This document shows, piece by piece, positions 5,674 through 61,590 of a stretch of DNA of 64,000 nucleotides. The stretch lies in contig CAYRYV010000013.1 in assembly GCA_964428565.1 (NCBI GenBank), positions 1-64,000 of the forward strand, in the 5' to 3' direction. The notes below the pieces were generated by a model. It was not told where the DNA came from. It did no database searches and worked only from the letters and a program-made list of their open reading frames with translations. Both the position numbers and the translations under genes were made by a program. Within the stretch, counting starts at the first letter, position 1, and each line of letters begins with the position of its first letter. The stretch comes from an uncultured Desulfobacterales bacterium (GTDB taxonomy: Bacteria > Desulfobacterota > Desulfobaccia > Desulfobaccales > Desulfobaccaceae).

Positions 5674-6897
5674 ATGCCGGTTTTTACCAGAATAAGACGT
5701 CCCCTGGCGACCCTGGAGCAGTTTCTTTGTCCTTTGATCGGCACCTGTCTGACCCTCAGGGAACTCCAGAAAATCGCCCGGCGGTTTAAATATGAGGGGG
5801 AGTCCACTCCCTATAACCTCCATACCTGGTTGATCAGGGCTTGTAAAAACTCGCCCCCCGTCGCCAAGTACGTGCAGAAATTCCTCAGCGACAAATATCG
5901 CCCCATCATGCGGCGGCTGGACGAATTCGAGGGCGAGGCCTTGCTCCCCGCCTGGGAAGAGGCGGTGCGGGAAGGTCAGGTGGCCGGAGCCTTCTGGGCT
6001 CTGCTCACCCGCCTGGATGTCCCCGACGCCGTCATTGAGCAGGTCTTCGGGGAGGTCCACATGATGTCCCACCTGCAGGCGTCCGAGGTCCGCACCGAAC
6101 TCCAGGCCTTTGACGCCCTGCGCCGGGACCGCGACCAGTTGGCCCGGCGCCTTCACAAGACCAGGAGCAATCTGGAAGACCAGCGGTCCCGGAGAGAGGA
6201 ACTGCGTCGCCGCCTGGTCCACCGGGAAACCGAAGTCCGGCAGCTCCGGCGTCAACTAACCCAGACAGACAAGGTCCTGCAAAGCTATCAAGATGCCGGG
6301 GTCCTCACCCGCCTGGAGACGGAAAACCAGACGCTGCACCGGGAAAATAAGGACCTGCGGGCCCGCCTGTCCCAGGAACGCCTCCTCCGGGAGAAGCTCG
6401 ACCAGCGCCTGGCGCGCCTGCAGGAGAGGGCCCAGCAGCGGCGCTCCCGCATTCCGACGCCCGCTCCCCGGGGGTGTCCGCACCTCTGTCCCCGGACTCT
6501 GGCCGCGGCTTGTCCCCTGGGGCCTGAAGCTCAGTGCCCCGGCTTGTGTAATAAAAACATCCTGTTAGTGGGGGGATTGGAGAAACTGGTGCCCTTTTAC
6601 CGGGGTGTGGTGGAAGGCGACTTCGGCGCCTGCTTTCTCCGCCATGACGGCGACTTCCATCAGGGACAATCCTGTCTCGCCGGGCTGGTCAAAAAGGCCC
6701 ACGCCGTCATCTGCCCCATCGGCGTCAATAGTCACGACGCCTGCCTGTGCGCCAAGAAGCTTTGCAAGAGGCTGAACAAACCCTGTGTCATGTTGCCCAC
6801 GGCCGGTCTGGGAGTCCTGAAGCAGACCCTCCAACAACTGGCGGACAAAGAAGCCGCCCGGGGGGATACTGGGCCGGATCTGCCCCCGATCCAATGA
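5674..6897 (+). CDS. Coiled-coil protein with a C-terminal DUF2325-like Cys-containing domain
   Basis: Long Arg/Glu-rich coiled-coil in the middle; C-terminal ILLVGG...CPIGVNSHDA...CK pattern typical of DUF2325; ATG 5674 after AAAGGTGA. Confidence 0.5.
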   Translation: MPVFTRIRRPLATLEQFLCPLIGTCLTLRELQKIARRFKYEGESTPYNLHTWLIRACKNSPPVAKYVQKFLSDKYRPIMRRLDEFEGEALLPAWEEAVREGQVAGAFWALLTRLDVPDAVIEQVFGEVHMMSHLQASEVRTELQAFDALRRDRDQLARRLHKTRSNLEDQRSRREELRRRLVHRETEVRQLRRQLTQTDKVLQSYQDAGVLTRLETENQTLHRENKDLRARLSQERLLREKLDQRLARLQERAQQRRSRIPTPAPRGCPHLCPRTLAAACPLGPEAQCPGLCNKNILLVGGLEKLVPFYRGVVEGDFGACFLRHDGDFHQGQSCLAGLVKKAHAVICPIGVNSHDACLCAKKLCKRLNKPCVMLPTAGLGVLKQTLQQLADKEAARGDTGPDLPPIQ

Positions 6898-6965
6898 GCG
6901 TTGCCGCGGCGCACCCCTTGCCGGCGCCTGTAAACGATAATCCTTACAACCTCGAGAGGTGAAAC

Positions 6966-12325: not shown

Positions 12326-12534
12326 CCTGTTACCTCCTGCATCAGTAAGGTTAATCCCGGCGAACCGTTTTCATTGACTACCTTACCTCAGCAAATGTTA
12401 TGCCATGCCTCTATTATTCATGATATGAAGAGGTTATCCATAATTGTTCCCCAGCCCCCCCTTCCTTGCGTGCCGGGAAGTTCAACAACTATGAGGCGAT
12501 TTCCATAACATACAAAAATCACTGAATATTATAT

Positions 12535-12551
12535 TGTTTAATAATTAAACA
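12535..12551. promoter_or_regulatory. Perfect 8-1-8 palindrome TGTTTAATAATTAAACA in the 464-bp AT-rich gap inside the hdr cluster
   Basis: Related copies TGTACAATAATTAAACA (22934-22950) and TTGTTTAATATTATTAG (about 23448-23464). Confidence 0.4.
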
Positions 12552-14955: not shown

Positions 14956-15628
14956 GGACGACATATCTCCTCTTGTAAGCCGGGTGGATGACGGTACCCG
15001 GGGTAGTGCCCCGCCCGTGGGGATGGAGCGGTAGGATCGCATCGATCTGCTCCAGCCTTCCCTGCTGTTCCAGCCTGGCATAGATTTCACACCAGGCGCA
15101 CTCCCGGTCCGGATTCACCTCGCATTTTCCCTGGACGTTGCCGCCGCAGGGGCCGTTGAGCAAGCCCTTGGGACACATGGTTTGCGGGCAAATCCCCCCG
15201 GTAACCCCCAGGTAACACTGATGGCAGGCTCGGCAGCGCTCGGTATACCACCCCGCCTCTTCGTTGACCCCGATGAAGGTGGTGTTGAGGGCCGGGAAGA
15301 CCGGTTTCATGCCGGACATTGCCGCCAGGAACTGCACCCCGGCGCCGCAGGCCGTCGAAATGACTACGTCGTAGTCGGCCACCGCGTCGCTCAGGGGCTG
15401 AATAAACTCCCGGTCGCACTGGCGCTCCACCGTCATCTCGCCGATCTTCGGGTGCTTGCCTTCCTGCCCCCAGGCGAGCTTCAGTTGCGAAGCCAACAGC
15501 CCCACCTCTTTTTCCCCGCCTACCAGGCAAACCGCCACACAGGTGCCGCACCCGGCGATGAGAATCTTCTCATAGGGCGCCACCGCCGCCTTGATCTCCG
15601 CAAAAGGCTTTCGTTCCGCGATAATCAT
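14948..15628 (-). CDS. metV: MTHFR small subunit MetV-like (MTHFR C-terminal zinc-ribbon-like domain) protein
   Basis: Cys-rich (GCGTCVAVCL..., CRACHQC...CPQTMCPKGLLNGPCGG) like MetV; ATATGA overlap with the upstream mvhD stop. Confidence 0.7.
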   Translation of the reverse strand: MIIAERKPFAEIKAAVAPYEKILIAGCGTCVAVCLVGGEKEVGLLASQLKLAWGQEGKHPKIGEMTVERQCDREFIQPLSDAVADYDVVISTACGAGVQFLAAMSGMKPVFPALNTTFIGVNEEAGWYTERCRACHQCYLGVTGGICPQTMCPKGLLNGPCGGNVQGKCEVNPDRECAWCEIYARLEQQGRLEQIDAILPLHPHGRGTTPGTVIHPAYKRRYVVHE

Positions 15629-16089
15629 ATTTGCACCGCCAGTTCTTGTTCTTCCGGGACCATGGCCTCCGGTGTCCAGTTTGGGTTCAGGGGACTGGGC
15701 CCCAACCGTTTGACTCTTTCCACCATTTCATTCACTGCTATCACCCACTTGGGGGCGTCTGAAGCAGCCACCTCATACATGATCAGGCGTTCTGAGCCCA
15801 GACCGCATTCATCCAGCAAGTTCTGGCCATATTCCACCCGTTCGCGGGCCCGCAGATTCCCTTCCAGGAAATGGCAGGTGCCCGCCTCGCAGCCACTCAC
15901 CATAACGCCGTCGGCCCCGGCCTCGAAACCCCTCAGAATATGCAGGATGTCAATCCGGCCGGTGCACAGGTACTTGACGATCCGCACGTTGGGCGGATAC
16001 TGCATCCGGGCCGACCCCGCCATATCCGCGGCCGTGTAGGTGCAGTAGGTGCACACCAGGGCCAAAATCTTAGGAGTAAATTCTGTCAC
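15625..16089 (-). CDS. mvhD: Methyl-viologen-reducing hydrogenase delta subunit family protein (MvhD), Cys-containing copy
   Basis: ILALVCTYCTYTAADMAGSARMQYP...YLCTGRID...GCEAGTCHF MvhD hallmarks; start GTG 16089 chosen by alignment to the paralogue (the track's ATG 16110 lacks an SD). Confidence 0.8.
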   Translation of the reverse strand: MTEFTPKILALVCTYCTYTAADMAGSARMQYPPNVRIVKYLCTGRIDILHILRGFEAGADGVMVSGCEAGTCHFLEGNLRARERVEYGQNLLDECGLGSERLIMYEVAASDAPKWVIAVNEMVERVKRLGPSPLNPNWTPEAMVPEEQELAVQI

Positions 16090-16195: not shown

Positions 16196-16657
16196 TCAGG
16201 TTTGCACCGCCGGTTCTTGTTCGCCCGGAACCACAGCCCCCGGTATCCATTGCGGACTCAGAGGACTGGGGCCCAGAGCCTTGACTTTTTCCGTCATTTC
16301 CTTAACCACGGCAACCCATTTGGGGGCATCGGAGGCGGCGATCTCATAGAATGCCAGACGCTCGGCCCCCAGGCCGCATTCTTCCAGTAAGTGCCGTGCA
16401 TATTCCACACGTTCGCGAGCTCTGAGATTTCCTTCCAGGAAATGGCAGGTGCCGGCCTCTCAGCCACCCACAAATATGGCGTCGGCCCCGGCCTCAAACC
16501 CTTTTAAAATATGCAGGATGTCAATCCGGCCGGTGCACAGGTACTTGACGATCCGTACATTGGTCGGATACTGCATCCGGGCCGACCCCGCCATATCCGC
16601 GGCCGTGTAGGTGCAGTAGGTGCACACCAGGGCCAGTATCTTCGGGGAAAATTCCAT
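16196..16657 (-). CDS. mvhD: MvhD paralogue with in-frame TGA (16460-16462) at the position of the conserved Cys (GC-EAGTCHF); proposed selenocysteine-containing MvhD, 153 aa read-through
   Basis: Track ORFs 16460..16657 and 16196..16408 are in the same frame and ~80% identical to the downstream mvhD on both sides of the TGA; the TGA replaces a TGC codon; SD GAGGAGA before ATG 16657. Confidence 0.6.
16427..16443 (-). other. Candidate SECIS-type hairpin (AUUUCCU-GGA-AGGAAAU) starting 16 nt 3' of the in-frame UGA
   Basis: 7-bp perfect stem seen directly in the sequence; the same region in the Cys paralogue has one wobble pair, so this is not discriminating on its own. Confidence 0.25.
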
Positions 16658-22879: not shown

Positions 22880-22897
22880 CAACATAAGATTGTTCAG
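22880..22897. promoter_or_regulatory. Rex-like operator candidate TTGTTCAGAATTTCACAA in the hdrCB-hdrL-mvhD-metVF promoter region
   Basis: Matches the Rex consensus TTGTGAA-N4-TTCACAA at 12 of 14 defined positions; AT-rich promoter island. Confidence 0.35.
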
Positions 22898-22933
22898 AAT
22901 TTCACAACGTATTAATATTATTGAAATCTATCT

Positions 22934-22950
22934 TGTACAATAATTAAACA
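22934..22950. promoter_or_regulatory. TGTACAATAATTAAACA near-palindrome (second copy of the 12535 motif)
   Basis: 15/17 identity to the perfect palindrome at 12535-12551. Confidence 0.35.
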
Positions 22951-26409: not shown

Positions 26410-27000
26410 GCCCAGGGGGGGCAGAGGCACACCACCCCGGCAAAAGAGGTACGCGAGGTGTACCGGGGTACCGGGAAAAAATCGCGGGCCCCCCGGTACA
26501 CCGGGGGCGGACGTAGTCACCTTTCTGGCATCATCCTGAATTCCTTCATTATTCATCGCACAAGCCTCATGTCAACGAGCCGGCGGCGTCACGCCGGGGG
26601 CCGGTACCGGCCGGAACAGGTACCGGTTTGTACCGGGGGTGTACCGGGTAAGTCGGTTGTGAGCGCCGGTGGACCGCGGTACCGGTACGGGCCGTCAGCC
26701 GCAAGCGGTGAGTCGGGGACGGGGCGGCCGCTACGCCGGGCGGCGGCGTCCATGGGAGAAAGTGTAACGGAAACGGGCGGGGGTTTCCAGAACAGATGAG
26801 ACACATAGGACACATGTCACAAAATCGTAACGGGGGGAGCATTTTTGGGGGCGCGGGGCGGCGGCGGGGAGGCACCAAAGAAAAAGAAATCCCCCCGGCC
26901 CCCCTTTGTCAAAGGGGGGGCGAAAGGAAAAGAATGGTGGCCAAGCACAGCTTGGCAAAATAATAACGTGCCCAAGTACAACTTGGGCACGAGAAAAAAA
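26410..27000. repeat. Composite non-coding repeat, copy 1 (block B ~26410-26660, block A ~26800-27000); inverted relative to copy 2 at 60521-61170
   Basis: Manual reverse-complement alignment: block A ~95% identical over ~210 bp, including twin hairpins CGTGCCCAAGT-TGT-ACTTGGGCACG and GCCAAGC-TGT-GCTTGGC; block B ~85% over ~230 bp, with GTACCGG/GGTGTACC iterons. Confidence 0.75.
26937..26995 (-). terminator. Intrinsic terminator of the IHF/HU gene: hairpin CGUGCCCAAGUUGUACUUGGGCACG + UUAUUAUUUU, followed by a second hairpin
   Basis: 11-bp perfect stem, 3-nt loop, U-tract on the minus strand directly downstream of the 27092 stop. Confidence 0.6.
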
Positions 27001-27091
27001 GGGCGTTGCCCGCGGGGGCTGGGGAGCGGGACGGGGGGAAAGACAGCGGGCGGAGTTTTTCAGGTGACTACAGATCGACGGAGCAGGGCGG

Positions 27092-59187: not shown

Positions 59188-60216
59188 TCAATCAAATATG
59201 CTGGGGTGAGCTTTCTTCGGGGTCTTCTGGTGAAAATACTCCAACGCCCGCCGGGTCACCACGCGCCCCCGGGGGGTGCGGCTTAAAAAGCCGCACTGGA
59301 TCAGAAAGGGCTCGTAGACCTCCTCCAGGGTGTCCCGCTCCTCGCCCACCGCCGTGGCGATGGTGTCGATCCCCACCGGGCCGCCGTCGAACTTCTCCAT
59401 GATGGTCAACAGAATCTTGCGGTCCATGCGGTCGAAGCCCTGGGCGTCCACCTCCAGCAGGCTCAGGGCGGCGTCCGCCGTCTGCCGGTTGACGATCCCG
59501 TCGCTCCGCACCTGGGCGTAGTCCCGCACCCTTTTCAGCAGCCGGTTGGCGATGCGGGGCGTGCCCCGGCTCCGGCGGGCGATCTCCCGGGCGCCCCCCG
59601 CCTCGATCTGCACCCCCAAAATGGCCGCCGCCCGGGTGACGATGACGGTCAACTCCTCGGGCCGGTAGAACTCCACCCGCAGCATCAGCCCGAACCGGTC
59701 CCGCAGCGGCGGGGTCAACAGGCCCGCCCGGGTGGTGGCCCCCACCAGCGTAAAGCGCGGCAACTCCAGCTTGATGGCCCTCGCCCCCGGCCCCTGGCCG
59801 ATGATCAGGTCCAGCTGGAAGTCCTCCATGGCCGGGTAGAGGATTTCCTCCACCACGTGGGGCAGCCGGTGCACTTCGTCGATGAACAGCACGTCCCCGG
59901 CCTTCTGGTTGGTCAGCAGGGCCGCCAGGTCCCCGGGCCGCTCGATCACCGGCCCCGAGGTGGTCTTGATCCCCACCCCCATCTCCTGGGCGATGATGTG
60001 CGACAGGGTGGTCTTGCCCAACCCCGGGTGGCCGTGGATCAGGATGTGGTCCAGGGCCTCCCCCCGCCCCTTGGCCGCCTCGATGGCGATCTCCAGGGTG
60101 CGCTTGGTCTCCTCCTGCCCCACAAACTCGCGCAGCCGCCGCGGCCGCAGCCCCAGTTCCAACCCCAACTCGTCCAACTGCAACCGGGGACTGACAAATC
60201 TCTCCGCACTCTCCAT
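59188..60216 (-). CDS. ruvB: Holliday junction branch-migration helicase RuvB
   Basis: [10 protein letters not shown] Walker A, FIDEVHRL, RuvB winged-helix C-terminus. Confidence 0.9.
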
Positions 60217-60520
60217 AATTGCCCTCAGTCTACCGCACTTTTTTCGACAATACAACCATCTTTCCGCCTCCCCCCCCGTACCGCTCCCCGGTACACCCCC
60301 CGCGTTGCCGGGGTGGCGCCGCCACCAGAGGCTCTTCTCCCCGCTCCCCAACTCCTGCCGGGCAACGCCCTTATCCCGCCCGGCTCCCGCCGGGCCTCCT
60401 CTGGTTTTCTGCTATGACGCCGCCGCCCCCGGCGCGCTCTGTTCCCCCGTCCCGCTCCCCGGCACACCCCCGGCTGTCCCCGACCACGTGTTGCCGGGGT
60501 GGCGCCGCCACCAGAGGTTA

Positions 60521-61170
60521 TTTTTTTCTCGTGCCCAAGTTGTACTTGGGCACGTTATTATTTTGCCAAGCTGTGCTTGGCCACCATTCTTTTCCTTTCG
60601 CCCCCCCTTTGACAAAGGGGGGCCGGGGGGATTTCTTTTTCTTTGGTGCCCCCCCGCCGGCTCCCGGCCCCCAAAAATGCTCCCCACGTTACGATTTTGT
60701 GACATGTGTCCTATGTGTCTCATGTGTGTTGGACCCGACCCCGCTTTTTCTGTACAGTGGTAACCGGGCGGCCACCCCGCCCCCCAAACAAACCAGAAAA
60801 ACAATACGTTTCCTTAACTGGAAACCGGAAACCGGAAACTCACCAGGGGCCGTTAGCCGCACCCGCGGCCGGCGCGCCCCGCCCAAGGATTGGGCTATGG
60901 ACAAACACACGCTGTTGTGCAGCATCTGCAACCACCCGCGGCCGGGTCGCCCTTACCCGGTACACCCCCGGTACAGGCCGGTACCGGTACCGGCCTGTAC
61001 CGGCCCCCGGCGGTCCACCGCCGGCCCGTTGATATGAGGCTTGCGCGATGAATAAGAAAGGAAATCAAGATGATACAGGAAAGGTAACTGCCGCCGCCCC
61101 CCGGTGTACCGGGTAACCGGCGTTTTTTCCCCGGTACCCGGTACACCGGCACGCGCCGGTGTGCCCACGG
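60521..61170. repeat. Composite non-coding repeat, copy 2 (block A 60521-60730, block B ~60950-61170); inverted relative to copy 1
   Basis: Same twin hairpins + U-tract and the perfect 32-bp palindrome GGTACAGGCCGGTACCGGTACCGGCCTGTACC; (GGAAACC)x3 between the blocks. Confidence 0.75.
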
Positions 61171-61305
61171 CCCCCCTCCCCCGGCCATCTTCTCCCTCCC
61201 GCGGCCCCCGCCCCCGGGGTGATTGCGCCTGGGGTCGGGAATATGCTATAGTAGGCTCACGCTGGGGGGCCGCCCTCTGGCGATCTCACTTCCAAGGAGC
61301 TGATT

Positions 61306-61590
61306 ATGGCCACCTTTTTCATGTTCGGCAAATATACCAATGAAGCCCTCAAGGGCATGAGCGCCGCCCGCACCACCAAGGTCCAGGACCTGGTGAAGAA
61401 GTATGGGGGCGACATCAAATCCATGTATGCCCTCCTGGGCGCCTATGATCTGGTTTTCCTTGCTGAATTCCCGGGGGTGGGTCAGGCCATGCAGGCCTCG
61501 GTGGCCTTGGCCAAGGCCACCGGCATTTCCTTCACCACCCGCCCGGCGGTGTCCGTGGCGGAGTTTGATCAGCTCATGGCTGCGGTCTGA
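61306..61590 (+). CDS. GYD-domain protein
   Basis: MATFFMFGKYTNEALKG...LGAYDLVFLAEFP pattern of the GYD family; SD AAGGAG. Confidence 0.7.
   Translation: MATFFMFGKYTNEALKGMSAARTTKVQDLVKKYGGDIKSMYALLGAYDLVFLAEFPGVGQAMQASVALAKATGISFTTRPAVSVAEFDQLMAAV

Follow-up and report, generated by a model that had tools for sequence, protein, structure and literature searches.

A repeat-dense intergenic spacer in an uncultured Desulfobacterales bacterium carries a probable REP doublet of a hairpin family that flanks transposase genes in other genomes

Introduction

REP-associated tyrosine transposases, or RAYTs, are Y1 HUH enzymes related to the IS200 transposases; they bind and cut the hairpins of repetitive extragenic palindromic (REP) sequences in single-stranded DNA and spread these hairpins through intergenic DNA. 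Work on REPs and RAYTs has so far centred on Proteobacteria, mainly Gammaproteobacteria. Here we describe a repeat-rich spacer of 1092 bp in a 64,000-nt stretch of DNA (contig CAYRYV010000013.1 of assembly GCA_964428565.1, positions 1 to 64,000; hereafter, the window) from an uncultured Desulfobacterales bacterium. The spacer lies between ruvB (59188–60213, minus strand) and a gene for a GYD-domain protein (61306–61590, plus strand) and holds the second of two copies of a composite built from a block A and a block B. A preliminary description of this DNA had suggested that its palindromes and repeats form a protein-binding platform, with recombinase, partition or regulator sites. We report that positions 60521–60586, at the start of block A, are very probably a RAYT-type REP doublet. 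The spacer as a whole is probably DNA of a familiar selfish or structural type rather than a dedicated binding platform, which would explain its striking density of repeats.

As points of comparison, we used the literature on RAYTs, REPs and REPINs (two inverted REPs around a short spacer), namely Nunvar 2010 (PMC2817692), Bertels and Rainey 2011 (PMC3116915) and the TnpA-REP structure, 4ER8 (PMC3479197). RAYT genes are always flanked by two inverted REPs according to this literature (PMC2817692). In the CGTC-tagged REPs, which include Neisseria dRS3 (Di Nocera 2013, PMC3733652), a CGTC, TGTC or CCTC tag precedes a stem of 8–9 bp with A-T pairs at positions 1–2, a loop of 4–5 nt and a CCA tail. 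Clustering of REPs in mosaic intergenic regions is documented for the bacterial interspersed mosaic elements (BIMEs) of Escherichia coli and for Neisseria (PMC2817692, PMC3733652).

A hairpin doublet in block A and its relatives

In copy 2, block A consists of the following parts.

60521–60586, plus strand: probable Type I REP doublet, CTCG-TGCCCAAGTTGTACTTGGGCA-CG followed by GCCAAGCTGTGCTTGGC
60601–60634, plus strand: Type II hairpin, C7TTT-GAC-AAAG6-CC-G6ATTT, of a second dispersed hairpin family
60635–60733, plus strand: rest of block A, 95% identical to copy 1, with three TGTGNC direct repeats

The doublet begins with a T-rich tract and CTCG, which are followed by a first hairpin, H1 (60530–60554; 11-bp stem, 3-nt loop), and a second, H2 (60565–60581; 7-bp stem). 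Three strong hairpins are found in the first 130 nt of block A (fold z = −6.4). When species-representative genomes were scanned with an H1–H2 pattern, 27 loci were obtained, mostly in metagenome-assembled genomes (MAGs) of Deltaproteobacteria and Thermodesulfobacteriota, and also in Hydrogenedentota, Nitrospirales, the Planctomycetes–Verrucomicrobia–Chlamydiae (PVC) group and Campylobacterota; a single genome, MAG058, has at least eight. The family consensus is a pyrimidine tract, CTCGTTCCCAAGYTGTRCTTGGGAACG, 10–15 nt and (G/C)CCAAGCTGTGCTTGG(C/G). The window doublet is 88–91% identical to doublets in MAG058 and other MAGs, the dispersed doublets of MAG058 being the most similar, and it scores 81 bits against the covariance model R1, in whose training set it was included. 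In BLAST comparisons with the relatives' loci, similarity is confined to 60518–60603, plus 60602–60634 for the third hairpin.

Approximately 30 of 34 hairpin clusters lie between open reading frames (ORFs), and the orientation of the doublets relative to neighbouring genes is random (12 same, 11 opposite). The full elements of the relatives are inverted pairs, H1 H2 ... H2' H1', of about 150 nt (L022 and L006; for example, L022:6075–6235). Across 25 aligned doublets, 98.7% of the cells are paired and four pairs are changed on both sides, one of these being the window's own T-A to G-C swap. The covariation score was 0.137 compared with 0.037 in shuffles, with none of 500 shuffles reaching it; as the CCAAG...CTTGG core is fixed by the search pattern, only the outer and loop-closing pairs are informative for this measure. 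Rfam returned no family at its gathering threshold for 18 related loci and none for the window, two tRNAs excepted, and neither copy of the composite gave a match at E ≤ 10. A literature search by sequence strings yielded only primer noise.

The Type II hairpin has the consensus C5–6 TTT N4–6 AAA G5–6, then 2–4 nt, then G5–6 ATTT, and is found in several of the Type I-bearing deltaproteobacterial MAGs, often as inverted pairs. Its positions are 60601–60634 and 26887–26920 in the window and L022:2286, L023:3078 and L025:5923–6002 and 6864–6941 elsewhere. Neither a transposase nor any other associated gene was found beside these hairpins, the pairs in L025 flanking no transposase-like ORF, and the family is not in Rfam. 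For the remaining ∼100 nt of block A and for all of block B, no relatives were found in the sequence collections searched.

On four contigs of the IMG/VR viral collection (L131–L134), CCAAGTTGTRCTTGG hairpins occur as a tandem pair, but their flanks are different (GTCCAAG...CTTGGAT). These score 29–37 bits against the REP model and may constitute a distant hairpin family.

Type I hairpins flank RAYT genes in three phyla

At several of the loci, Type I hairpins bracket an ORF of about 180 amino acids. In three genomes from three phyla, the protein matches NCBIfam NF047646, 'REP-associated tyrosine transposase' (curated cutoff, 80 bits), with 110.6 bits for L027 in MAG058, 96.1 bits for L021 in Campylobacterota and 104.9 bits for L016 in the PVC group, and inverted Type I hairpins stand on both sides of the gene. 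All three proteins contain the HUH and YIHHNP motifs and match Pfam Y1_Tnp, above its cutoff for L027 only; their only PDB match is E. coli TnpA-REP, 4ER8. These REPtrons show the classical arrangement, with a forward hairpin that precedes the start codon by ∼40 nt and, right after the stop codon, an inverted H2'–H1' pair. It is because they flank RAYT genes in inverted orientation that we identify Type I hairpins as REPs. MAG058 has both the transposase and dispersed doublets. One hairpin is widespread in uncultured Desulfobacterota, present in several other phyla and linked to a RAYT clade. That its core was kept across phyla while the transposases diverged to ∼40% identity is a modest data point on this association.

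The longest ORF over the RAYT gene of L016 (5356–6204, minus strand) starts about 105 codons upstream of the RAYT homology, and part of this extension is made up of translated tandem REP copies (...PRSQVVLGN...). Annotating the gene from that early start would be a mistake, and spurious peptides can arise from REP hairpins in this manner.

Comparison with described REP systems

Like REPs and REPINs, Type I hairpins are short extragenic palindromes with compensatory changes that are dispersed in intergenic DNA; they occur in inverted orientation around a RAYT-equivalog gene in three other genomes, and REPIN-type inverted doublets are present in the relatives. They differ in having no GT(A/G)G head and in carrying a 5' flank of (T/C)n-CT, then CG or GG that pairs with 3' CG or CC. 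In addition, each Type I arm is a two-hairpin unit (H1 plus H2), and the same core is found across phyla with RAYTs that are mutually only 38–45% identical. The window itself departs from the REPIN layout, since it holds a half element, with two copies per 64 kb and no RAYT in view.

The likeness to CGTC-tagged REPs lies in a TTCCC...GGGAA-type stem of 8–9 bp with A-T at the first two positions, in a loop of 5 nt if the Type I stem is counted as 8 bp (TTCCCAAG, then TTGTA), in a CCTC-like 5' flank on some Type I copies and in the mosaic intergenic settings. However, the Type I tag is CTCG or CTGG, of which the last two bases are paired, and there is no CCA tail. CGTC-tagged REPs were reported without a dedicated transposase, whereas Type I hairpins flank RAYT genes. 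With its CTCG tag, no CCA tail and a stem that opens with T-A and then has G-C at position 2, the window variant falls outside the CGTC-tagged superfamily.

The composite also resembles E. coli BIMEs and the neisserial mosaics, which are long intergenic stretches of several short modules with a make-up that varies by locus and which play a secondary part in termination, in mRNA stability and in the binding of proteins (IHF, gyrase). A BIME, however, is a regular array in which members of a single REP family alternate in orientation and are joined by defined linkers, whereas each copy of the composite joins a single REP doublet to unrelated modules found so far in this lineage alone and hence is not a regular BIME.

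Two copies of the composite in the window

The first copy is inverted relative to the second and is arranged as follows.

26457–27043, minus strand: copy 1 of the composite, with REP doublet (27000–26935), Type II hairpin (26920–26887), block A (27000–26786) and block B (26652–26457)

Block A of copy 2 (60521–60733) is 95% identical to that of copy 1 over 215 bp, and block B (60952–61147) is 84% identical over 197 bp; the sequence between the two blocks is hardly alignable. The same A-then-B order is thus found at two unrelated loci in opposite orientation, the A blocks facing inward and the copies bracketing 33.5 kb of ordinary chromosomal genes. Copy 1 is flanked by an IHF-alpha gene (27379–27092, minus strand) and by tRNA-Lys/tRNA-Glu (26012–25854, minus strand). 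At copy 2, the ruvB product has the domains RuvB_N, AAA_lid_4 and RuvB_C, and the GYD gene corresponds to PF08734. Together, the neighbours of the two copies comprise ruvB, radical SAM, GYD, IHF, histone-deacetylase-family and tRNA genes. No rep, par or recombinase gene adjoins either copy, and no similarity of the composite to plasmids or phages was found. The edges of block A, block B and the whole composite show neither the terminal inverted repeats nor the target-site duplication of a miniature inverted-repeat transposable element. Iteron-type origins and partition sites are phased repeats beside rep or par genes on a plasmid, phage or origin; here, there is no such setting and two copies lie within 64 kb. 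The H1 hairpin is followed by a U-rich tail, UUAUUAUUUU, which suggests that in copy 1 (26991–26967) it probably ends the IHF transcript.

Short-read metagenome contigs from the same organism stop at or near the repeats, at window positions 60836, 61147 and 26971 (ends of L001, L002 and L003, respectively): L001 begins within the heptamer repeat described below, L002 has its start where block B ends and L003 breaks off 30 nt inside block A. Breaks at block edges are expected because these sequences are repeats. In practice, hairpins of this kind break short-read assemblies and seed spurious ORFs.

Features peculiar to copy 2

Three features upstream of or between the blocks of copy 2 are listed here.

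60273–60331, plus strand: direct-repeat unit 1, CCCCGGTACACCCC head plus GTTGCCGGGGTGGCGCCGCCACCAGAGG, with a 15-bp palindrome at 60312–60326
60444–60517, plus strand: direct-repeat unit 2, with a ∼15-nt insertion compared with unit 1 and a 15-bp palindrome at 60498–60512
60808–60839, plus strand: GTTTCC-N6-GGAAAC hairpin running into 2.9 units of GGAAACC

The preliminary description had called attention to a perfect 32-bp palindrome, to two direct repeats each containing an inverted repeat and to a tandem of GGAAACC, and had regarded them as non-random. The palindrome, CCGGTACAGGCCGGTACCGGTACCGGCCTGTACCGG, is indeed perfect, although its length is 36 bp (60968–61003) rather than 32; such a sequence is expected by chance about 1e-6 times per 64 kb by our estimate. 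The direct repeats are present, each with the 15-bp palindrome GGTGGCGCCGCCACC, as is the heptamer tandem, GGAAACCGGAAACCGGAAAC (60820–60839; 2.9 units). The two direct-repeat units are 76% identical over 74 aligned columns, a low value that is due to the ∼15-nt insertion in the second unit, and their 39-nt cores (60298–60336 and 60484–60522) are 90% identical.

Neither the palindrome nor the direct repeats nor the heptamer tandem is found in the same form in copy 1. The counterpart of the palindrome (26636–26601) is imperfect and differs at five positions, and it is these five differences that jointly turn the copy 1 quasi-palindrome into the fully symmetric sequence of copy 2. In place of the heptamer, copy 1 has only a GGAAAC-N8-GTTTCC inverted pair (26788–26769). 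The direct repeats have a single chimeric equivalent in copy 1 (27043–27001): the left flank of block A there joins sequences that are ∼186 bp apart in copy 2. Because of this chimeric flank, the direct-repeat units of copy 2 look like a diverged local tandem duplication of ∼186 bp. As copy 1 either has none of these features or has them in another form, they look like the outcome of local duplication, slippage and palindrome perfecting.

The motif CCGGTAC occurs 23 times in the window compared with 6.2 ± 2.7 expected, a count that none of 100 shuffles reached, and 21 of the 23 sites are in the composite (10 in copy 1, 11 in copy 2). Far from occurring at chance frequency, a result that would have spoken against the platform proposal, the iteron motif is therefore strongly clustered within the window. 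Exact tandem arrays of GGTACACCCCC, of 2.5–5 units, were also seen in three unrelated JGI metagenome contigs (L142:6946–6970, L143:1020–1084 and L145:150–215). The array in L142 is located 90 nt upstream of uvrB, abutting a TATAGT −10-like hexamer, and that in L145 lies upstream of a gene in AT-rich DNA. A DNA-repair gene is near the array in both L142 (uvrB) and the window (ruvB). These metagenome arrays may be a coincidence, about two exact 20-mer matches being expected by chance in ∼1e12 bases (an estimate). A degenerate CCGGTAC-array pattern gave 99 matches on viral contigs, mostly with a 12-nt period, which were read as unrelated tandem repeats; the pattern is nonspecific.

Parts of block B and the candidate small RNA

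In copy 2, block B contains the following parts.

60952–61003, plus strand: start of block B, CCGGTAC array with 10–11-bp spacing, including the perfect palindrome at 60968–61003
61007–61024, plus strand: GC hairpin CCGGCGG-TCCA-CCGCCGG, just upstream of the −35-like hexamer
61029–61056, plus strand: promoter-like TTGATA-16-AATAAG
61048–61116, plus strand: 22-codon ORF (MNKKGNQDD...), not conserved as protein
61092–61128, plus strand: terminator-like two-tier hairpin, then T6
61131–61147, plus strand: two trailing CCGGTAC units, end of block B homology

The order is therefore CCGGTAC array, GC hairpin, promoter-like site, about 65 nt of purine-rich sequence, hairpin with T run and two CCGGTAC units. 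The copy 1 counterpart of the GC hairpin (26597–26580) keeps a 6-bp stem with a different loop. In copy 1, the promoter-like site (TTGACA-16-AATAAT, 26575–26548) agrees with the consensus at 11 of 12 positions; that of copy 2 is weak because its −10 hexamer is without the last T. The terminator-like site of copy 1 (26507–26476) has its T run 7 nt away from the main stem.

The short ORF of block B had been described as not conserved at the amino-acid level, and we arrive at the same view. Of its first 18 residues, 11 are common to copy 1, the differences fall 5/1/5 by codon position and the frame is lost after codon 18, so that conservation is at the nucleotide and not at the protein level. On the opposite strand, both copies are open for ∼65 codons and the peptides are 68% identical (manual count) at 84% nucleotide identity. 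This ratio matches neutral change, and the opposite-strand reading was consequently rejected as coding.

Neighbouring genes in the relatives

Upstream of the GYD gene, the spacer contains one further element.

61244–61252, plus strand: −10 region belonging to the GYD gene itself, TGCTATAGT; nothing else of the spacer is kept in the closest relative, L031

In L031, whose GYD gene is 85% identical, the upstream neighbour is a polB-like gene that stops 50 nt before it, and the −10 region (L031:515–523) is all that the two loci have in common. The closest IHF relative (87% identity) has a downstream spacer of 250 nt without the blocks, and a Type I doublet is located elsewhere on the same contig; more distant relatives have yet other genes downstream of IHF. 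The composite is absent from the GYD and IHF loci of the nearest relatives, and clusters of CCGGTAC are absent at every relative's locus examined. Judged from these gene neighbourhoods, the composite is not a control region of the neighbouring genes.

Origin of the composite and alternative explanations

We consider it somewhat more probable than not that the whole composite is a REP-based intergenic mosaic without dedicated function. Its modules would be, in order, the REP doublet, the second dispersed hairpin family beside it and block B, which is rich in GGTACC palindromes and has been found only in this lineage so far. According to this scheme, the doublet would have been mobilised by a RAYT in this genome, and the two copies would have arisen through duplication or transposition. 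Copy 2 would then have grown through a ∼186-bp tandem duplication that gave the '45-bp direct repeats' of the preliminary description, through slippage that gave the heptamer triplet and, as the alignments suggest, through template switching that corrected a quasi-palindrome to the perfect 36-bp palindrome. Any effects on the host would be a by-product: in copy 1, the IHF transcript would probably terminate at H1, and a short transcript may be made from block B.

Several observations weigh against this mosaic. The copy number is low, as the 64-kb window contains only two Type I doublets, both within the composite. There is no inverted partner REP at either window copy, only the direct H1–H2 half, and no RAYT gene or remnant was detected in the window by tblastn, even at E = 50. 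For block B and two thirds of block A, which are without relatives, the label of repeat module rests solely on their palindromic make-up. The stronger conservation of block A compared with block B (95% versus 84%) could reflect constraint and not necessarily recent gene conversion. Finally, CCGGTAC units phased at 10–11 bp just upstream of the near-consensus copy 1 promoter would look like an operator or activator array.

The last point bears on the view that block B is a two-copy small-RNA gene, with a sigma-70-type promoter, a purine-rich transcript of ∼65 nt, an intrinsic terminator and a regulator that would bind to the phased CCGGTAC array upstream. In the promoter scan, the site of copy 1 was as good as that of the IHF gene, no other part of block B is as well conserved as the promoter segment, the two-tier hairpin of copy 2 stands directly before T6, the CCGGTAC units are 10–11 bp apart and the ORF is not conserved as protein. 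Yet no copy has both signals intact, with a good promoter in copy 1 alone and a canonical terminator in copy 2 alone: the AATAAG hexamer of copy 2, without its key final T, is not called as a promoter, and the T run of copy 1 is 7 nt off the stem. The putative transcript folds no better than shuffles (z = +0.15 and −0.57) and has no Rfam match, the promoter 22-mer has no match in JGI metagenomes and six-frame translations of the blocks matched no called ORF in the protein collection, a weak negative given the X-joined concatenated query. A small-RNA gene is thus an unsupported candidate, which we regard as unlikely. We are a little more doubtful still of a variant in which block B is a self-contained unit (phased CCGGTAC operator array, promoter, purine-rich RNA of ∼65 nt and terminator), seen only in a Desulfobaccales-like lineage and travelling with the REP doublet; if it were true, the REP/RAYT machinery would have spread a small regulatory RNA gene to new loci. 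Comparably doubtful is a platform for a regulator or nucleoid protein that controls ruvB, GYD, IHF or the tRNA operon. Palindromes and phased repeats are far denser than expected by chance, the palindromic 15-mer occurs twice 85–300 nt upstream of ruvB and an unrelated metagenome contig has an exact (CCCCGGTACA)n array right next to the −10 region upstream of uvrB. However, the genes flanking the two copies are functionally unrelated, the proposed sites are not the same in the two copies, the GYD gene has a conserved −10 region of its own close by, the relatives are without the platform, no relative's locus examined has a CCGGTAC cluster and the metagenome arrays may be chance minisatellites (∼2 exact 20-mer matches expected in ∼1e12 bases, as estimated above). 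What stands of the platform proposal is that the DNA is non-random and conserved at the nucleotide level, and that its best-conserved module is a hairpin of the type recognised by a DNA-processing enzyme, such hairpins flanking RAYT genes in other genomes. Nothing points to a dedicated platform for a recombinase, for partition or for a regulator, given that the copy 2 features are absent or different in copy 1, the relatives do not have the composite, no rep, par or recombinase gene is adjacent and no plasmid or phage similarity is seen.

Two further explanations concern the composite as a mobile or recombining unit. It could be a decayed larger element, either a REPtron that has lost its RAYT or an insertion sequence that landed in a REP: the doublet is at one edge of a ∼600–900-bp unit at two unrelated loci, and the relatives' REPtrons consist of REP, gene and inverted REP. 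This is very unlikely, as tblastn detected no RAYT remnant, the block edges have no inverted partner REP, terminal inverted repeat or target duplication and a six-frame protein search for ORFs across the blocks gave no match. Least credible of all, in our estimation, is that the inverted copies serve as recombination substrates which flip the 33.5-kb segment (27000–60521), making it a large invertible region. The copies are inverted, with the 95%-identical A blocks inward and 200 bp of near-identity, and short-read assemblies break at them. However, the repeats alone would account for the assembly breaks, no invertase gene is nearby and GC skew is negative on both sides of 60.5 kb, with no sign change of the kind that would fit a recent inversion. 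On the basis of the layout, we also considered a diversity-generating retroelement, an integron attC site, a phage att site and oriC. None was retained: the context offers no reverse transcriptase, integrase or dnaA, the mismatches show no specificity for adenine and the repeats take the form of inverted blocks of 200 bp.

Additional observations in the window

Elsewhere in the window, the G+C content falls to 0.53–0.56 between 20000 and 26000, compared with 0.63 overall, in a stretch that adjoins the tRNA-Lys/tRNA-Glu pair and may be an island or regulatory DNA. An AT-rich sequence of 54 nt occurs twice, at 12498–12551 and 22897–22950, with 72% identity. A segment of 300 nt is directly repeated at a distance of 571 bp (15625–15924 and 16196–16495) with 76% identity, probably because small paralogous genes lie in tandem there.

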